DNA from: Calditrichia bacterium
Lineage (GTDB): Bacteria > Calditrichota > Calditrichia > RBG-13-44-9 > J075
Length of the DNA stretch: 64,000 nucleotides
Assembly (NCBI GenBank): GCA_028284445.1
Contig: JANQRS010000011.1
Coordinates: 128,321 to 192,320, forward strand
Direction of reading: 5' to 3'
Shown: positions 3,726-59,120 of the stretch, one piece after another
How positions within the stretch are numbered: position 1 is the first letter of the stretch
How the letters are laid out: the number at the start of each line of letters is the position of its first letter
The notes under the pieces: generated by a model
Database searches by the model: none
The model's input: the letters and a program-made list of their open reading frames with translations, nothing else
What the model was told of the DNA's origin: nothing
Program-made: the position numbers and the translations under genes

Positions 3726-4130
3726 GTGTCAGATACCATCCGATATGAAATAGATGCAGATATTGATATAGAAGCACTGTTGAGGCTTTTTGCCCAGGCC
3801 GATTGGACTCGAAGCAGACAGGCTAGAGATACCCGAAAAATGCTTCTGGGAACGACGTTCCACATTACGGCCTGGCGTGACAACAGATTGATCGGTTTCC
3901 TGCGGGTGTTAACTGACAGGGCATATCGTGCTCTGATCGAAGATGTTATCGTGGCCGAAAATCATCGCAAGAGTGGTATTGGCAGGAAGCTGGTTGCTCT
4001 TGCTCTGGAAGAGTTGAGCGATGTAGAAGAAGTTTTGCTTGGATGCACAGAAGAAAATGTGTCTTACTATGCGCAATTTGAATTTATTCGAGTCACGCAC
4101 CCATTCATGAAGCGGGTCCGGATAAATTGA
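3726..4130 (+). CDS. GNAT family N-acetyltransferase
   Basis: GTG start after AGGAG RBS. Motif HRKSGIGRKLV. Confidence 0.7.
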   Translation: MSDTIRYEIDADIDIEALLRLFAQADWTRSRQARDTRKMLLGTTFHITAWRDNRLIGFLRVLTDRAYRALIEDVIVAENHRKSGIGRKLVALALEELSDVEEVLLGCTEENVSYYAQFEFIRVTHPFMKRVRIN

Positions 4131-4505
4131 CGAATATACTTGGATGATAACATGGAACCTGTCGAACAACTACGAAGCTCCACTGAGCTACGGAAACGGG
4201 CAATTGTTCTTTATGCTGTCGCTGCAGCGGATAAGCTGGCGCCCGTTTTATTCTTCTTTCTAGCCCAGGATGTTCATCAAGCAAAATACATTTGCGACGC
4301 TGAAGACTATTTCGGCAATAGTGCCCTGAACCAGATCCTTATTCGGCTTACCATCCAGACCCGCGCTTAGCGACCTGCCTATTGCAAATCCCAGGAAGAT
4401 TAGCACTGCAACAACTGGTCACTTGTCAATGAAAAAATGTGCGAGTTGAAAATTGTTTGAGATTAATTCATATATTAATCAAACCTAAATCAGGCAGAGA
4501 GTGAG

Positions 4506-5021
4506 ATGTCCAGGGAAAAACTGATCAAAAGATTGGAATGGTATTATCCCACCGAGAGACTACATGCATTTGTGACTTTCCCTTCGGTCGTTGCACTTGT
4601 GCTGGCATTTAATGCTTTTGTGGATGTTATCTTCCTGGTATATGGGCTTTTGGTCTGTGTGTTTATTCTCTATCAAGGACAACATTACTGGAAGTTGAAG
4701 CTGCGCCGCCTAAAAGGGGAGAGGGTAGAGCAACGGAAAAACCTGCGATTCTTTCGAAATTCGAAATTTGCCAATCAAATTCTAATTAGCTTAATGCCCG
4801 CTGTTCTGCTGTTACAATTCTTCATTTCCAATTGGGAGTTAAAAGCGGAAAACCTGATGGGTTGGGCTGTTTTCGCAAATGCCTTCGCAATTATAGAGCA
4901 TCTCAATTATTATGTGCGACAAATAAGCATAGATAACAAAGCTGATCTAAGGTATGTGCTGAAGCAGAAGAGACTGAAAAAAGCCAGTTTGGCAAAGGAT
5001 CTTGATAACGACCATATATAG
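4506..5021 (+). CDS. hypothetical membrane protein (3 predicted TM helices)
   Basis: Hydrophobic helices, no recognisable domain. Lower GC than the neighbours. Confidence 0.4.
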   Translation: MSREKLIKRLEWYYPTERLHAFVTFPSVVALVLAFNAFVDVIFLVYGLLVCVFILYQGQHYWKLKLRRLKGERVEQRKNLRFFRNSKFANQILISLMPAVLLLQFFISNWELKAENLMGWAVFANAFAIIEHLNYYVRQISIDNKADLRYVLKQKRLKKASLAKDLDNDHI

Positions 5022-5837: not shown

Positions 5838-7308
5838 AATGGGTGTTCAACAACACATATCAAGCTGTGATGTTTGTATTATCGGCGCAGGAATTAGCGG
5901 TTTAACGCTGGCCTATCGCCTGCAAAAAGCCGGCCTGCGTGTTAAGCTGCTTGAGAAATCGAGCCGGCCGGGTGGGGTCATGCAAACAGATCTCAGCGAT
6001 GGCTTTCTTTTCGACCAGGGGCCGAGCGGCACGTTTTTTAAATCCGCAGCAGTTGACCAGCTTATTGATGATCTCGGCTTGCAGAATAGGGTGCAATTCG
6101 CCGATGAGGATGTCGCAAAGCGCTATATTGTGAAGGATGGCAAACTTCATTCGGTCTCAATGAAGCCGTTGACGTTTTTACGCTCCGGACTGCTGAGTTG
6201 GCGCGGAAAATTACGCTTGAGCATGGAGCCGTTTCTGCGAAGCAAAACGGACGATTCGCGGGAAAGCGTGGCCGATTTCGTCCGAAGACGCCTGGGGCAG
6301 GAAACACTTGAGCGCCTGATTGATCCACTCATTGCCGGTATTTACGCCGGCGATCCTGAACAGCTGGATTTCCAGTATACGCTGCCTCGTCTGGCAGCAC
6401 TTGAGCGACAACATGGTAGCCTCATACGCGGAATGCTGGCGATGCGAAGTGTACGTCGCAAGAGCAGTGCAGATGGCATATCCAGGTCGAAGATGTTTTC
6501 ATTTGATGGCGGCATGAATGTGCTGGCAGCAACGCTTGCCCGCGAACTCGGGGACGATGTAGTTTTGAACGCCAAGGCGCACTCGCTTCACAAGTCTGAG
6601 CACGCCATTGAGGTCAGTTATCGCCAATCCTCGGGAAATACCAGTGTGCTGAACGCCGCCAAGGTGGTTTTGGCGACACCCGCTCATATCTGCGCCTCGT
6701 TACTGGCGCCAATATATTTGGAAATGGCCAACACCCTAAAAAGCATTGATTATTCGCCGGTCGCTGTTGTCTTTCACGGCTATGCTAGAAAACAGATACG
6801 ACAAGACCTGGACGGATTTGGCTTTCTTGTGCCGGGAATTGAAAACCGTAGGATCCTTGGCTCGATTTGGAGTTCATCGAAATTCTCGGGACGTGCGCCA
6901 GATGGCTATGCCGCCTTGACAACATTTGTTGGTGGCAGACGCCAGCCAGAATTGCTGGAAAATGATGAAGACCGGTTGCTCGACATAGCAGAAAGCGAAT
7001 TGCGGGATCTAATGGGCATTTCCGGACAAGCGGTTGTGCGCAAGATCCGTATTCTTCCGAAGGCCATTCCGCAGTTTGGCTTGCAATACAAAACCGTTCT
7101 TGAAACCGTAGCCGCGTTTAACACTGAACAGCAGCAGATTCGGATTACCGGGAATTTCCTGCAAGGTGTGGGTGTGGCGGATTGTATCAAAAATGCCACA
7201 GAGATGGCAAAAGAGATCGTTGGTGAACACCGCGCGGCTCGAAATACGCAACAAGCGCGTCGTGAAATCTCCCAGGCTTTTTCAAGCCCGACGACCGCAC
7301 GAATTTGA
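5838..7308 (+). CDS. hemY: protoporphyrinogen/coproporphyrinogen oxidase (HemY family, FAD-dependent)
   Basis: FAD dinucleotide fold (VCIIGAGISGLTLAYRL) with ATG at 5838. 489 aa. Directly upstream of ferrochelatase. The ORF-track start at 5689 would overlap the cupin. Confidence 0.8.
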
Positions 7309-52850: not shown

Positions 52851-53753
52851 ATGCCGCGTGAAATTCAAATCAAGTCTATTCTCAACAAAAGCAAGAAGCG
52901 CGATAGCTGGTTTCTGAGTGACTACACGGCTAACCTCTATAGTAGCTGCTCCTTCAATTGTCTCTATTGTTACATTCGCGGTAGTAAGTATGGCACCAAT
53001 CTTGAAACGAGTCTGTCTGTTAAGACCAATGCCATTGAGGTGTTGGATCGCCAGCTGGCAAATCGCGCCCGCAAAGGACAATATGGATTTATTGTTCTTT
53101 CCTCCGCAACAGATCCTTACCTACAAATCGAAAAGAAGTATCAACTTACACGAGAGGCGCTGAAACTTATCCTCAAACATCGTTTTCCGCTGCATATTCT
53201 CACCAAGTCGAATTTGATTGAGCGCGATTTCGACCTGTTGCATCAAATCCAGCAAGCCGCTGTTTTGCCAAAGGGGCTGGAGCGAATAGGGAAGGGGCTG
53301 ATTGTCTCCTTCTCGTTTTCCACCTGCCTGGACGAGGTCGCTGAAATATTTGAGCCAGGGGCAACGCCGCCCTCTGAACGACTCCTTGCAGTTGATAAGA
53401 GTGTCGCTGAAGGATTCCGCACAGGCATCAGCATGATGCCCTTTATCCCCTATGTATCTGACACTGGCGATCAGCTGCACTTCATGTTTAAAACTATGAA
53501 GGAACACCGGGTCAATTATATACTACCGGCGACGATAACGCTCTTTGGAAGCGGAAAAGCGGACAGCAAAACTCTCATGCTCAACGCAATTCGCAAACAC
53601 TACCCGGAATTGGGAGAAAGATACGAGCGACTCTTCGCGAATAGCACGGAATTGCCGCGCTATTATCGCAACGCGTTCTATGTGAAGACACAGGAGCTGT
53701 GTCGAGAGTATGGGTTAGTTAATGGAATAATAGAGAGCGTTGGACACAAATAG
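52851..53753 (+). CDS. radical SAM protein, SplB-like (DNA photolyase family)
   Basis: CxxxCxxC cluster (CSFNCLYCY). Size and pattern of the COG1533/SplB-like family. Confidence 0.7.
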   Translation: MPREIQIKSILNKSKKRDSWFLSDYTANLYSSCSFNCLYCYIRGSKYGTNLETSLSVKTNAIEVLDRQLANRARKGQYGFIVLSSATDPYLQIEKKYQLTREALKLILKHRFPLHILTKSNLIERDFDLLHQIQQAAVLPKGLERIGKGLIVSFSFSTCLDEVAEIFEPGATPPSERLLAVDKSVAEGFRTGISMMPFIPYVSDTGDQLHFMFKTMKEHRVNYILPATITLFGSGKADSKTLMLNAIRKHYPELGERYERLFANSTELPRYYRNAFYVKTQELCREYGLVNGIIESVGHK

Positions 53754-54853: not shown

Positions 54854-55909
54854 ATGAAATATTTGTGGATATTGACAGTCTTACTGGTGAGCTGTAGTGG
54901 CTCATTTCAAATCCCGAAGCCGTCCAGGCAGGCCGTGCCGTCGACCGCGGAACAGAAAGAGAAAATTGAGCGCGGCATTGACCTGCACGATCAGGGCAAA
55001 TTCAGCCAGGCGGTTGCTGTCTACGAAGAAGTCCTGGCCGCCAATCCGGCCAATGTCTTCGCAATGTATGAAATCGCCTACTCGCTAACGCGCCTGGGCA
55101 ACACCCAGGCCAGTCTTGATCATGCCATTCATGGACTCGGGTATGAATCGCCTCATGCTTCGAAGCTGGCGATCCTTGCTGGTAACAATTCAGACATGCT
55201 AGGTAAGACTGAGCAAGCTATCAAGCTCTACCAATATGCCCTAACTATAACCCCAAATGACCACATGGTGCACTATAACATGGGTGTCACCTATTTCGGA
55301 CAAAAGAATCTCGAGGCTGCCGAAGCGAGCTTTCTTAGATCTCTTGAGCTCAACCCTGCTCATGCTTCTACACATATTGGCCTCGCTGAAGTGTATATCG
55401 ACATGGGGAAGCAGCTTGAAGCGATTTTCCTTTTGACAAAGTTCCTGATACTTGAACCCAATACGCGCCGTGCCTCGACAGCCCTTGGATACTTAGAGAA
55501 GCTGATGGCCGCTGGGGTAAGCCAAGAGGGGAAAGGTGAGGTGACTGTGAACCTCTTCGGCGCCTTGGGAGGGGAAAGCAACTATTTTACCACGGCTGAG
55601 TTGGCCTTTAAGCTGACGCGATCGATGCGATTCACTGAGGATGATGGAAAAATATCAGAGCTGGATCGTCGCCTAAAGGAATTTGAAATGCTTTTTGGCG
55701 CCGTCAATGGCGACAAAGTAAAGACCGATGGCTCATTCCTGGAAAAGTATCTGTTAGCATATTTTAGCGACCTAAAGGACGCAGGACATACAGAGGCCTG
55801 CGTTTATTATATCCATCAAATTGCGGATCACAAGGACATTCAAAAATGGCTGTCCGAGAATTCTGTGGCCATAGGGCATTTTAAGAAATGGCATCGCGAT
55901 TATCCGTAA
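54854..55909 (+). CDS. TPR-repeat lipoprotein
   Basis: Lipobox (LLVSCSG). TPR units. Confidence 0.7.
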   Translation: MKYLWILTVLLVSCSGSFQIPKPSRQAVPSTAEQKEKIERGIDLHDQGKFSQAVAVYEEVLAANPANVFAMYEIAYSLTRLGNTQASLDHAIHGLGYESPHASKLAILAGNNSDMLGKTEQAIKLYQYALTITPNDHMVHYNMGVTYFGQKNLEAAEASFLRSLELNPAHASTHIGLAEVYIDMGKQLEAIFLLTKFLILEPNTRRASTALGYLEKLMAAGVSQEGKGEVTVNLFGALGGESNYFTTAELAFKLTRSMRFTEDDGKISELDRRLKEFEMLFGAVNGDKVKTDGSFLEKYLLAYFSDLKDAGHTEACVYYIHQIADHKDIQKWLSENSVAIGHFKKWHRDYP

Positions 55910-55928
55910 ACTCTGCTAAATTAGCGTT

Positions 55929-56015
55929 ATCAAGCATCAAGCATCAAGCATCAAGCATCAAGCATCAAGCATCAAGCATCAAGCATCAAGCATCAAGCAT
56001 CAAACATCAAGCATC
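55929..56015. repeat. heptanucleotide microsatellite (ATCAAGC) x about 12.4
   Basis: Directly visible: 11 perfect copies, 1 single-mismatch copy and a partial copy. Lies in the intergenic region 24 nt upstream of the GNAT 56039 start. Confidence 0.95.
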
Positions 56016-56038
56016 CAAATCTGCAAGTCGGTAAGGAG

Positions 56039-56467
56039 GTGATGATGAAAGATATTCAAATCAAGATTTCAACCATCGATGACCTTCCCGCGCTCATCGA
56101 AGCCGGGGATGACCTTTTTGATTACGAAGTGAAGCCGGAGAGGGCCAAAGAATTCTTTGCGGACCAGCGGCATCATTTGGTTGTCGCCTGGCATAATGAT
56201 AAGATTGTCGGCATGGTGTCTGCGCTTGACTATGTTCATCCCGACAAAGACTTGTCTTTGTTCATCAACGAAGCATCGGTAGTCGAAGCATATCAAAACC
56301 GCGGCATCGGTCGTGAAATGATGAAGTTTATGGTCGCCTACGGACGGGAGCTGGGGTGTGGTGAGATCTGGGTAGCAACAGAAGCTTCAAACACTCAGGC
56401 GCGCAAGGCATATGCCGCAGCCGGTGGTCGTGAAGACGATGAGCCTGTGGTGTTGATTGAGTTCTAG
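56039..56467 (+). CDS. GNAT family N-acetyltransferase
   Basis: YQNRGIGREMM acetyl-CoA motif. Strong AAGGAGG RBS. Confidence 0.75.
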   Translation: MMMKDIQIKISTIDDLPALIEAGDDLFDYEVKPERAKEFFADQRHHLVVAWHNDKIVGMVSALDYVHPDKDLSLFINEASVVEAYQNRGIGREMMKFMVAYGRELGCGEIWVATEASNTQARKAYAAAGGREDDEPVVLIEF

Positions 56468-56502: not shown

Positions 56503-56988
56503 ATGAATTTAGTACCTATAACGACCTGTATTGCGCTACTTGTATTGTGCATATTATCCTGCGATCACCATGAAGGACATCATGATCATTCTGATCATGG
56601 TGATTCGCACAGTCATTCGAGTCAACAGCACGCATCCAGTCACGACACTCATGCATCGTCAACAGAAAACCTACGCCTCAATGGCGACGATAAATGGCAA
56701 ATGGATGGTCATACTAGAAAGATGTTTGCCGAGATGACTGCTCGATTTCAGGATATTAATCACTCCAGCTTGAGTCAGTCTCAACTCAAGATACTCGGCG
56801 CAGACCTGGAAAAGGACCTTGAGAAATTGATTGCCGGCTGCACAATGGAAGGTGAAGCGCATGAAGAATTGCACAAATACTTAACGGCATATATGCCAAC
56901 AGTACAGCAACTGGCAATGGAAGGTGCGCCGGAACAGGCCGATGACATTGTTTCATTACTGGCACTATTTTCGAATTACTTTGAATAA
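56503..56988 (+). CDS. histidine-rich lipoprotein (putative metal-binding)
   Basis: Lipobox (ILSC). Immediately followed by DHHEGHHDHSDHGDSHSHSSQQHASSHDTHASS. Confidence 0.5.
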   Translation: MNLVPITTCIALLVLCILSCDHHEGHHDHSDHGDSHSHSSQQHASSHDTHASSTENLRLNGDDKWQMDGHTRKMFAEMTARFQDINHSSLSQSQLKILGADLEKDLEKLIAGCTMEGEAHEELHKYLTAYMPTVQQLAMEGAPEQADDIVSLLALFSNYFE

Positions 56989-57994: not shown

Positions 57995-58594
57995 ATGTTG
58001 ACAATATTTATAATTGTTGCTGTTGTTGCGGTCGTTGCCTTTATTGCCTGGCGATTTACATCCGTCAGCCGCGGGGCGCAGAAGCGCGACGACAAGATTC
58101 TTAACTTGCTTGATCCACTAAGGCAAAAACTGGATAAGGGCGAATCAGTCTCGCGAGAAGAGGTGTCAGCCCTTGCCATCCGCCCGGAGGTCCGTCCGAC
58201 TCTTTCCAGCGTGCTTGCTAGTTTTGACAAGAGGGATTTGCTGGACGCCAAATACAATTCGCCAATTAGCCAGGCAGAAGCGGGACTCGCTTTCTGGCTC
58301 ATGCACCCCAATGAATTTGGTGAAGCGCCGGCAGCAATTGAGCACATTCAGCAAGTAGATTATCCGGTACGCAGCAATCACGGCGTCTTCCACGTCTTTC
58401 GATATAAAATGCCTGATGGACATTTGGCCGCAAAAGACGGCTGGCTGCTCGGCGTGGTCGGACCGATGAACGAAGAAGCAGAGCCTTACTCGCATAATCA
58501 TGGTGCATATTCGCGTAGCAGTGACACTGAAGGTAGCATAAGCCCGCAAGAACTGGTTGAACGGTGGGTCGGTATTGTCGAAAAAAACCGATGA
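57995..58594 (+). CDS. hypothetical membrane-anchored protein
   Basis: N-terminal TM. No recognised domain. Confidence 0.35.
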   Translation: MLTIFIIVAVVAVVAFIAWRFTSVSRGAQKRDDKILNLLDPLRQKLDKGESVSREEVSALAIRPEVRPTLSSVLASFDKRDLLDAKYNSPISQAEAGLAFWLMHPNEFGEAPAAIEHIQQVDYPVRSNHGVFHVFRYKMPDGHLAAKDGWLLGVVGPMNEEAEPYSHNHGAYSRSSDTEGSISPQELVERWVGIVEKNR

Positions 58595-59120
58595 AGAAAT
58601 TCGCTTTATTCTTGAACTGTTTTCAAAGGCGGAAGCACAAAACATTCCACTTTGGCTTGAAAGCGGCTGGGCGATAGATGCCCGCCTTGGAAAGATTGCC
58701 GGAGAGCACGAAGATATAGATCTTGCCTATCCGGCCGAACGGCTTGCTGATTTTATGGCCTTTCTCGATGTATTTCAAACTGCCAATTATGAGAAAACGG
58801 ATTATGGCTTTCTACTCACTGTCCGAGGCCATCTACTTGACTGCGAACCCTGCCAAGCAGAAGACGGGAAATATGAGCTGGAAGGTATGCCACATGGTTC
58901 CTGTCCAGAAACAAAAGAAGGTGTCCTCAATGGCATACCTGTTCGCTGCACAAGCTGGGAGACTATCCTCTGGGAATACTTCTACTATCTTGAAGAAGTG
59001 CCGCTATCGAATTGGCGCGAAAAAGATTTTGTCAGTTATCGATCGGTTTGTGAACAGCTCGGGAGTGAGGTTGTTACCCGGCAACATGCTGCGTTCAAGT
59101 CAAGAAATAGTGGTGTTTAG
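58557..59120 (+). CDS. aminoglycoside 2''-nucleotidyltransferase ANT(2'')-Ia (AadB)-like protein
   Basis: Strong similarity, recalled from memory, to AadB over its whole length (LPLW..GGWAIDARLG...H.DIDL..P...EDYGFL....LLDCEP......E....P.GSCPE...GV..G.PVRC.SWE.I.W.YFYY..EVP). Size 187 aa versus 177 aa for AadB. TTG start overlaps the upstream gene. Confidence 0.8.
   Translation: MNGGSVLSKKTDEEIRFILELFSKAEAQNIPLWLESGWAIDARLGKIAGEHEDIDLAYPAERLADFMAFLDVFQTANYEKTDYGFLLTVRGHLLDCEPCQAEDGKYELEGMPHGSCPETKEGVLNGIPVRCTSWETILWEYFYYLEEVPLSNWREKDFVSYRSVCEQLGSEVVTRQHAAFKSRNSGV

Follow-up and report, generated by a model that had tools for sequence, protein, structure and literature searches.

Between the genes for a TPR-repeat lipoprotein and a GNAT family N-acetyltransferase, the Calditrichia bacterium contig analysed here carries a genuine non-triplet microsatellite, (ATCAAGC)x12.4, directly upstream of the GNAT gene (positions 55929-56015, forward strand, of the whole 64-kb stretch of DNA under study, hereafter the window). 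We read it, with a probability of about 0.6, as a slippage-made, hypermutable and probably near-neutral microsatellite in the leader of that gene. From 5' to 3' the tract consists of ten perfect ATCAAGC units, one ATCAAAC (copy 11, 55999-56005), one further perfect unit and a partial ATC, such that 11 of its 12 full copies are perfect. Tandem Repeats Finder describes it as period 7, 12.4 copies, 97% matches and a score of 167 with ATCAAGC as the unit, by far the highest score among the 13 rows returned for the window. A two-copy ATCAAGC probe allowing at most one mismatch gave 11 overlapping matches against 0.12 expected, a number that none of 100 dinucleotide shuffles reached; direct reading, repeat finder and shuffles are thus at one with the 11 perfect copies and one single-mismatch copy counted in the initial annotation. 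No further two-copy match lies beyond the tract in the 64 kb, and a regular-expression scan of the same window found no second repeat with a unit of 1-9 nt and no homopolymer of 8 nt or more. As the tract is the only SSR in 64 kb, the segment is not generally repeat-prone. At 87 nt and 97% identity, the tract falls within the definition of an LSSR (long SSR), namely a unit of 1-11 nt and a length above that of a random model; its base composition is A 44%, C 29%, T 15% and G 13%. Such length and purity make replication slippage likely, and with 11 of 12 copies perfect the slippage must be recent or still under way, as a selected contingency locus would equally lead one to expect.

The genes upstream of the tract encode a radical SAM protein (52851-53753), two small proteins that match no Pfam or NCBIfam family, and the TPR-repeat lipoprotein (351 aa; 54854-55909, forward strand, with the stop codon at 55907-55909), which matches Pfam TPR families and bears the lipobox LLVSC in its N-terminus, MKYLWILTVLLVSC. 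This lipoprotein is an orphan, with no homologue above 34% identity in 5.8 billion clusters. Downstream, the GNAT family N-acetyltransferase (140 aa; 56045-56467, forward strand) matches Pfam PF00583 at E = 2e-17, and the identities first given to both proteins therefore stand. The acetyltransferase is a generic one: its resemblance to RimI and AAC(6') is sub-threshold, and every NCBIfam match falls below its cut-off. A His-rich protein of 161 aa follows 35 nt past GNAT (56503-56988, forward strand) and adjoins GNAT in a metagenomic relative as well (contig L002, positions 4480-4968); the two genes probably share one transcription unit. This protein belongs to no Pfam or NCBIfam family and may be metal-binding; its N-terminus looks like a signal or lipoprotein sequence, and it contains a stretch rich in His and Asp (CDHH[ED]GHHDHSDHGD). 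Beyond it the order continues with an alpha/beta hydrolase, a 199-aa protein and an ANT(2'')-like nucleotidyltransferase. The last of these (58557-59120) resembles ANT(2'')-Ia at 183 bits, below the 350-bit cut-off, and lies 2 kb from GNAT on the same strand, the pair forming a loose cluster that resembles antibiotic-modifying enzymes. Of the non-overlapping ORFs of at least 100 aa, 69 of 73 are on the forward strand, an unusually strong strand bias for 64 kb, and the cumulative GC skew climbs over 50-60 kb.

Gaps around the locus are short, with 13 nt 5' of the TPR gene and 35 nt 3' of GNAT. The spacer between TPR and GNAT measures 135 nt; subtraction of the 87-nt tract leaves 48 nt, against a window median of 42 nt. 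To the left of the tract, the spacer comprises 19 nt (55910-55928), one fewer than initially counted from the TPR stop codon, with no terminator hairpin and no promoter match. To its right are 29 nt (56016-56044) that include the Shine-Dalgarno sequence AAGGAGGTGA (56033-56042) and lead to the GNAT start as placed by gene callers, an ATG at 56045, from which the 140-aa product is identical to P0001. The initial annotation had set this start at an ATG at 56039, 24 nt past the tract; the codon at 56039 is a GTG that overlaps the Shine-Dalgarno sequence. It had also placed a ribosome-binding site, AAGGAGG, right after the tract: the motif is present (56033-56039) but begins 17 nt further on. Paired with the canonical 16S 3' tail, AAGGAGGTGA forms 10 bp at -16.5 kcal/mol and ranks first among the 73 ORFs of the window, remaining the strongest when all other ORFs are given their best in-frame start; around a third of the ORFs have a recognisable Shine-Dalgarno-like motif. 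In L002, the stretch that matches window positions 56033-56047 is without a strong Shine-Dalgarno site and is 19 nt shorter. A mechanically called 48-aa ORF (55888-56034) spans the tract and would encode the heptapeptide repeat SSIKHQA, a coding repeat that we reject, its start lying inside the TPR gene without a Shine-Dalgarno sequence. Copy numbers of 2 modulo 3 (e.g. 11 or 14) would bring the ATG of this ORF into the GNAT frame, a possible fusion that is probably incidental; at 12 copies, no upstream start codon was found in the GNAT frame.

Concerning transcription, a consensus scan found no sigma-70-like hexamer pair within or across the spacer (55910-56044), and no Bacteroidota-type TAnnTTTG motif was seen there on reading. 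One weak match to a promoter, AGGACA-16-TATTAT (9 of 12 positions), is found upstream of the tract at 55783-55810, and the count of promoter-like sites in the region does not rise above that in shuffled sequence (7 vs 4.2 +/- 2.0). Between 54700 and 57200 no intrinsic terminator was found. RNA from 55900-56080 folds no better than its shuffles (MFE z = +0.63, with a nearly empty centroid), and a known RNA element was dismissed, Rfam giving one chance-level match (snoR79, E = 0.88). From the spacing of the genes, the comparison with L002 and the lack of a terminator, transcription of the tract is likely, whether between two cistrons or in a 5' leader; most likely it would belong to the spacer of a TPR-GNAT operon or to the leader of GNAT, and not to the inside of a promoter. 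In position it differs from repeats of phase-variable loci, being outside both ORFs and not between -35 and -10 elements. Because it lies outside the ORFs and no promoter hexamers flank its 87 nt, the two standard mechanisms by which SSRs switch genes ON and OFF do not apply.

The history of the tract can be approached through the closest GNAT found (P0002, 71% identity), which is encoded on the ENA metagenome contig L002. There, the neighbours are those of the window, with the genes for a radical SAM protein and two small proteins ahead of GNAT and that for a His-rich protein (57% identity) behind it, and the TPR lipoprotein gene is missing from this otherwise syntenic arrangement; it was either inserted in the lineage of the window or lost in that of L002. 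A mobile cassette made up of TPR gene and tract was considered and rejected, no meaningful direct or inverted repeats flanking it. The 197-nt region upstream of GNAT in L002 contains CAAGCATCAAGCAT, exactly two ATCAAGC units, 12 nt before the ATG and downstream of promoter-like sites at 3883-3944. This 14-mer is unique in the 6.2-kb L002 locus, and one shuffle in 200 gives any match when one mismatch is allowed. Copy number at the GNAT leader thus differs between species, 12 in the window vs 2 in L002, which answers the comparison of related genomes that the initial annotation had proposed. Since two copies occupy the matching place in L002, the array appears to have expanded by slippage from a two-copy proto-repeat. 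This comparison of orthologous loci rests on L002 as the only syntenic relative found: the GNAT homologues P0003, P0006 and P0007 (61-64% identity) have unrelated neighbourhoods, and relatives of the His-rich protein in JGI metagenomes (L116-L125, about 40% identity) have no adjacent GNAT and no heptamer array. In the collections searched, the species appears a single time. Three proteins of the window, GNAT, TPR and HemY (protoporphyrinogen oxidase), occur once each in a collection of 15 billion proteins, on an NCBI contig of 514,793 bp; the exact GNAT and TPR proteins, each the sole member of its cluster, are confined to one NCBI contig and one Logan sample, and the 28-nt right flank has no match in JGI metagenome contigs. 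The best named matches of the window HemY, 42-44% identical, come from Bacteroidota, KSB1, Ignavibacteria and Calditrichaceae.

ATCAAGC arrays are widespread. A scan of GTDB representatives (one genome per species) for three exact copies of ATCAAGC identified at least 108 loci in at least about 75 genomes (a count of accession prefixes) from many phyla, mostly environmental MAGs; with heptamers in general abundant (PMC4679880), the initial suggestion that such a repeat would be unusual in an environmental genome does not hold. Among the matches listed, many hosts are Bacteroidota (Saprospiraceae, Lewinellaceae, Chitinophagaceae, Roseivirga, Kaistella, Chryseobacterium and Aequorivita), accompanied by Planctomycetota, Acidobacteriota, Proteobacteria, Spirochaetota and others; the longest arrays reach 45 copies, and one to three of 73 non-edge arrays lie in a frame that is open for at least 300 nt on both sides. 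A conserved orientation of the arrays relative to genes was considered and rejected, as two crude ORF-based methods gave opposite and non-significant trends among the matches listed: 15 forward vs 9 reverse arrays upstream of starts by the first, and 8 forward vs 18 reverse (p = 0.08) between co-directional gene pairs by the second. ORF ends are themselves biased here, because TGA occurs in every frame on the reverse strand of ATCAAGC arrays. In loci L005-L112 (735 kb, chosen only for an ATCAAGC array) there are 163 period-7 arrays, compared with at most 14 for any other period, and 85 of the 163 are built on units other than ATCAAGC, many of them different from one another. An excess of period 7 of more than tenfold over other periods means that array-bearing genomes are prone to heptamer repeats in general, and its combination with so many units is in keeping with mutation of a general kind, not with an element tied to one sequence.

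Some of these genomes deserve mention in their own right. Three Desulfobacterales genomes carry 6-14 loci each among the matches listed (14 in Desulfobacterales bacterium HSG2, nine in MAG GMC6 and six in MAG GMC2), with arrays of up to about 45 copies in HSG2 and the GMC genomes (L101, at about 1550-1850 and 6701-6847; L012, L029, L062, L066, L095 and L106). Some HSG2 arrays stop 9-13 nt short of a start codon, and AGGAGG accompanies one of these (L101). The Desulfobacterales arrays may amount to a heptamer system spread over the whole genome, comparable to that of the TAACTGA repeats in Beggiatoaceae. In Orbaceae bacterium ESL0721 (L073, about 321-418), 14 copies stand directly after AGGAG-N11-ATGAAAAGC; a short leader-like ORF seems to enclose that array, and the title of the record mentions a 'his leader region'.

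The favoured account would run as follows. In the ancestor of the lineage, a two-copy seed, CAAGCATCAAGCAT, would already have stood a short way 5' of the GNAT start codon, and slippage would have expanded it to 12 copies in the lineage of the window, producing a heptanucleotide LSSR that is most probably near-neutral and of recent expansion. Loops of 7 nt escape mismatch repair, and copy number is therefore expected to drift in 7-bp steps. The RNA of the tract is predicted to be unstructured, A/C-rich and G-poor, and would affect neither the start codon nor the very strong Shine-Dalgarno sequence. With both of these intact, a change in copy number cannot switch GNAT fully on or off; at most it would alter the length of leader or spacer and thereby tune GNAT expression in small steps. 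The analysis shows the repeat and its position, the two-copy counterpart in L002, the lack of promoter, terminator and RNA structure, and how widely such arrays occur; co-transcription, hypermutability, neutrality and the size of the expression effect are the parts of the leader-microsatellite reading that we infer. Against this reading count the lack of any further SSR in the segment and a purity that a selected contingency locus would equally have. As a counterpoint, one must consider that sense orientation, a position directly before a gene and an exceptional ribosome-binding site alongside are, by analogy, also the layout of the hmw and TAACTGA tuning repeats.

That layout bears on a graded 'volume-control' locus, a possible, if doubtful, interpretation in which the copy number of the transcribed repeat would set expression of GNAT and of the genes downstream in a stepwise manner. 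Translation of the TPR cistron would end at its stop codon with release of the ribosomes, after which the tract, about 87 nt long and richer in C than in G, would act as a Rho-loading or ribosome-standby segment, stronger with greater length. The RNA of a rut-like segment is free of translation and of structure, rich in C and poor in G, runs to at least 70-80 nt and has YC dimers at regular intervals; the tract, untranslated and just past a stop codon in an apparent operon, offers 87 nt with C at 29%, G at 13% and 13 YC dimers spaced 7 nt apart (one UC per unit). On these features it resembles a Rho-loading segment or ribosome standby site, and a graded effect of length on GNAT is conceivable. 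Its sense orientation, 29 nt before the start codon, would suit such a role, as would the precedent of the 7-bp hmw repeats, in which copy number is inverse to mRNA level (PMC2424069). On the other side stands the survey: across at least about 75 genomes the orientation of ATCAAGC arrays with respect to genes follows no consistent pattern, a result that speaks against any general role at the RNA level. That the tract is a heritable and reversible 'dial', with 7-nt length steps setting the loading of Rho or of standby ribosomes between the TPR and GNAT cistrons, strikes us as unlikely. The same lack of orientation preference weakens the idea of a heptamer array that binds a single-strand nucleic-acid-binding regulator (a cold-shock protein, S1 or a CsrA-like protein). 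Regulator binding has been proposed for TAACTGA repeats upstream of start codons (PMC4679880), whose layout the tract shares, and the short distance to start codons (9-13 nt, one with AGGAGG in L101) of some HSG2 ATCAAGC arrays is in keeping with it. The window, however, has one array in 64 kb where TAACTGA sets number tens to hundreds per genome, the unit is a different one, and the same repeat-rich genomes hold many unrelated heptamer units, all of which makes a dedicated binding array highly improbable.

The initial annotation had suggested that GNAT expression may be switched stochastically; in the ON/OFF phase-variation model that corresponds to this, 7-bp slippage alters the spacing of promoter elements, or of activator and promoter, at GNAT. 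A non-triplet unit of slippage-prone length and purity immediately upstream of a gene is what such a switch would call for, and the weak promoter-like site at 55783-55810 does lie upstream. Yet no hexamer pair lies inside or spans the spacer, 87 nt is far beyond any -35/-10 spacing, the 29 nt between tract and ATG are taken up by the Shine-Dalgarno sequence, promoter-like sites are no more numerous than in shuffles, and the two-copy seed of L002 is downstream of the candidate promoters; we regard promoter spacing as the mechanism, and with it the switch, as very unlikely. Hardly credible, finally, is an assembly artefact in which the assembler itself produced the number of copies or the link between the two sides of the repeat. 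A Logan assembly at k=31, made from the same sample (SRR20820731), provides an independent check; its contigs do break at this place: the left one (L113) ends at window position 55851, and the right one starts inside the repeat at 55976 and reads through three perfect units, ATCAAAC, the last unit and the right flank. Since the break falls inside the perfect run, Logan supports the right end of the array and not the count of 12. A break is nonetheless expected where a perfect repeat of 70 nt meets k=31, the Logan contig itself contains at least three perfect copies with the ATCAAAC variant and the right flank, and the join is sound because both flanks are syntenic with L002, a single contiguous relative. 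The left Logan contig stops 78 nt short of the repeat and not at it, which suggests that the graph branches near the TPR 3' end, through a strain variant or a coverage gap.

If the copy number of the leader microsatellite does tune GNAT, a free-living uncultured lineage would join the host-adapted pathogens in which microsatellites create population heterogeneity, and the phenomenon would reach a possible antibiotic-modifying enzyme. Were the 'dial' to operate, subpopulations would differ in their levels of an aminoglycoside-acetyltransferase-like GNAT and of the genes downstream, a case of microsatellite bet-hedging in an uncultured free-living bacterium of the FCB group (Fibrobacterota-Chlorobiota-Bacteroidota). 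The locus is of interest only if heterogeneity of copy number at the level of reads is coupled to GNAT expression. Its practical value lies in marking a place at which short-read de Bruijn assemblies break, and at which an assembled copy number is not to be trusted.

Graded repeats in leaders have precedents, among them the AGAT repeats in the 5' UTR of Moraxella uspA2, where expression is likewise graded. The wider class of SSR contingency loci in Neisseria, Haemophilus and Campylobacter (reviewed in PMC11868660) shares with the tract a simple repeat, hypermutable there and probably so here, that is associated with a single gene, but there the repeat is part of the coding frame or separates promoter elements, and the ATCAAGC tract lies in neither position. 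Nearer in form are the 7-bp repeats of hmw1A and hmw2A in H. influenzae, in which more copies yield less mRNA in a graded fashion (Giufre et al. 2008, PMC2424069), and in which about 9-28 copies and slippage by +/-1 unit have been observed (PMC2424069; Dawid et al. 1999). Unit length, copy range and position directly upstream of a gene are alike in the two cases. The unit itself differs, and the hmw repeats belong to a surface adhesin of host-adapted nontypeable Haemophilus influenzae under immune selection, with a measured effect of copy number, whereas the present tract is known from sequence and precedes the gene for a cytoplasmic GNAT in an environmental bacterium.

With respect to habitat, the TAACTGA direct repeats come closer. 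These are intergenic and forward, with a start codon 1-43 nt downstream, and occur in marine Beggiatoaceae, Cyanobacteria and some Bacteroidetes (PMC4679880); a set usually has 2-6 copies, and sets number tens to hundreds in a genome (MacGregor 2015, PMC4679880). The tract has the same layout, being in sense orientation with 29 nt between its end and the ATG at 56045; as with TAACTGA, the hosts are environmental, including Bacteroidetes relatives of the present lineage, and close relatives are without an array at the locus. It differs in its unit (ATCAAGC, not TAACTGA), in its multiplicity (one array in 64 kb) and in adjoining a strong Shine-Dalgarno sequence, TAACTGA repeats being marked by a lack of such sequences. 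The best fit is the LSSR class of Mrazek, Guo and Shah (2007), as summarised in PMC4679880 and PMC11868660. Heptanucleotides are there the most abundant long-SSR class in repeat-rich prokaryotes, free-living ones included (Mrazek 2007, as cited in MacGregor 2015, PMC4679880), and polymerase slippage was proposed as the cause of their abundance (Mrazek et al. 2007, through PMC4679880). The tract shares with that class a unit of 5-11 nt and a length beyond chance; the mostly intergenic placement, the phylogenetic scatter that takes in free-living bacteria and the predominance of heptamers reported for it are reproduced by the present survey. Nothing essential separates the two, except that the window has a single array where LSSR genomes have many, and on one array and 64 kb of evidence the genome cannot be called LSSR-rich. 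The tract is thus one more example of an already documented abundance of heptanucleotide repeats in environmental bacteria.
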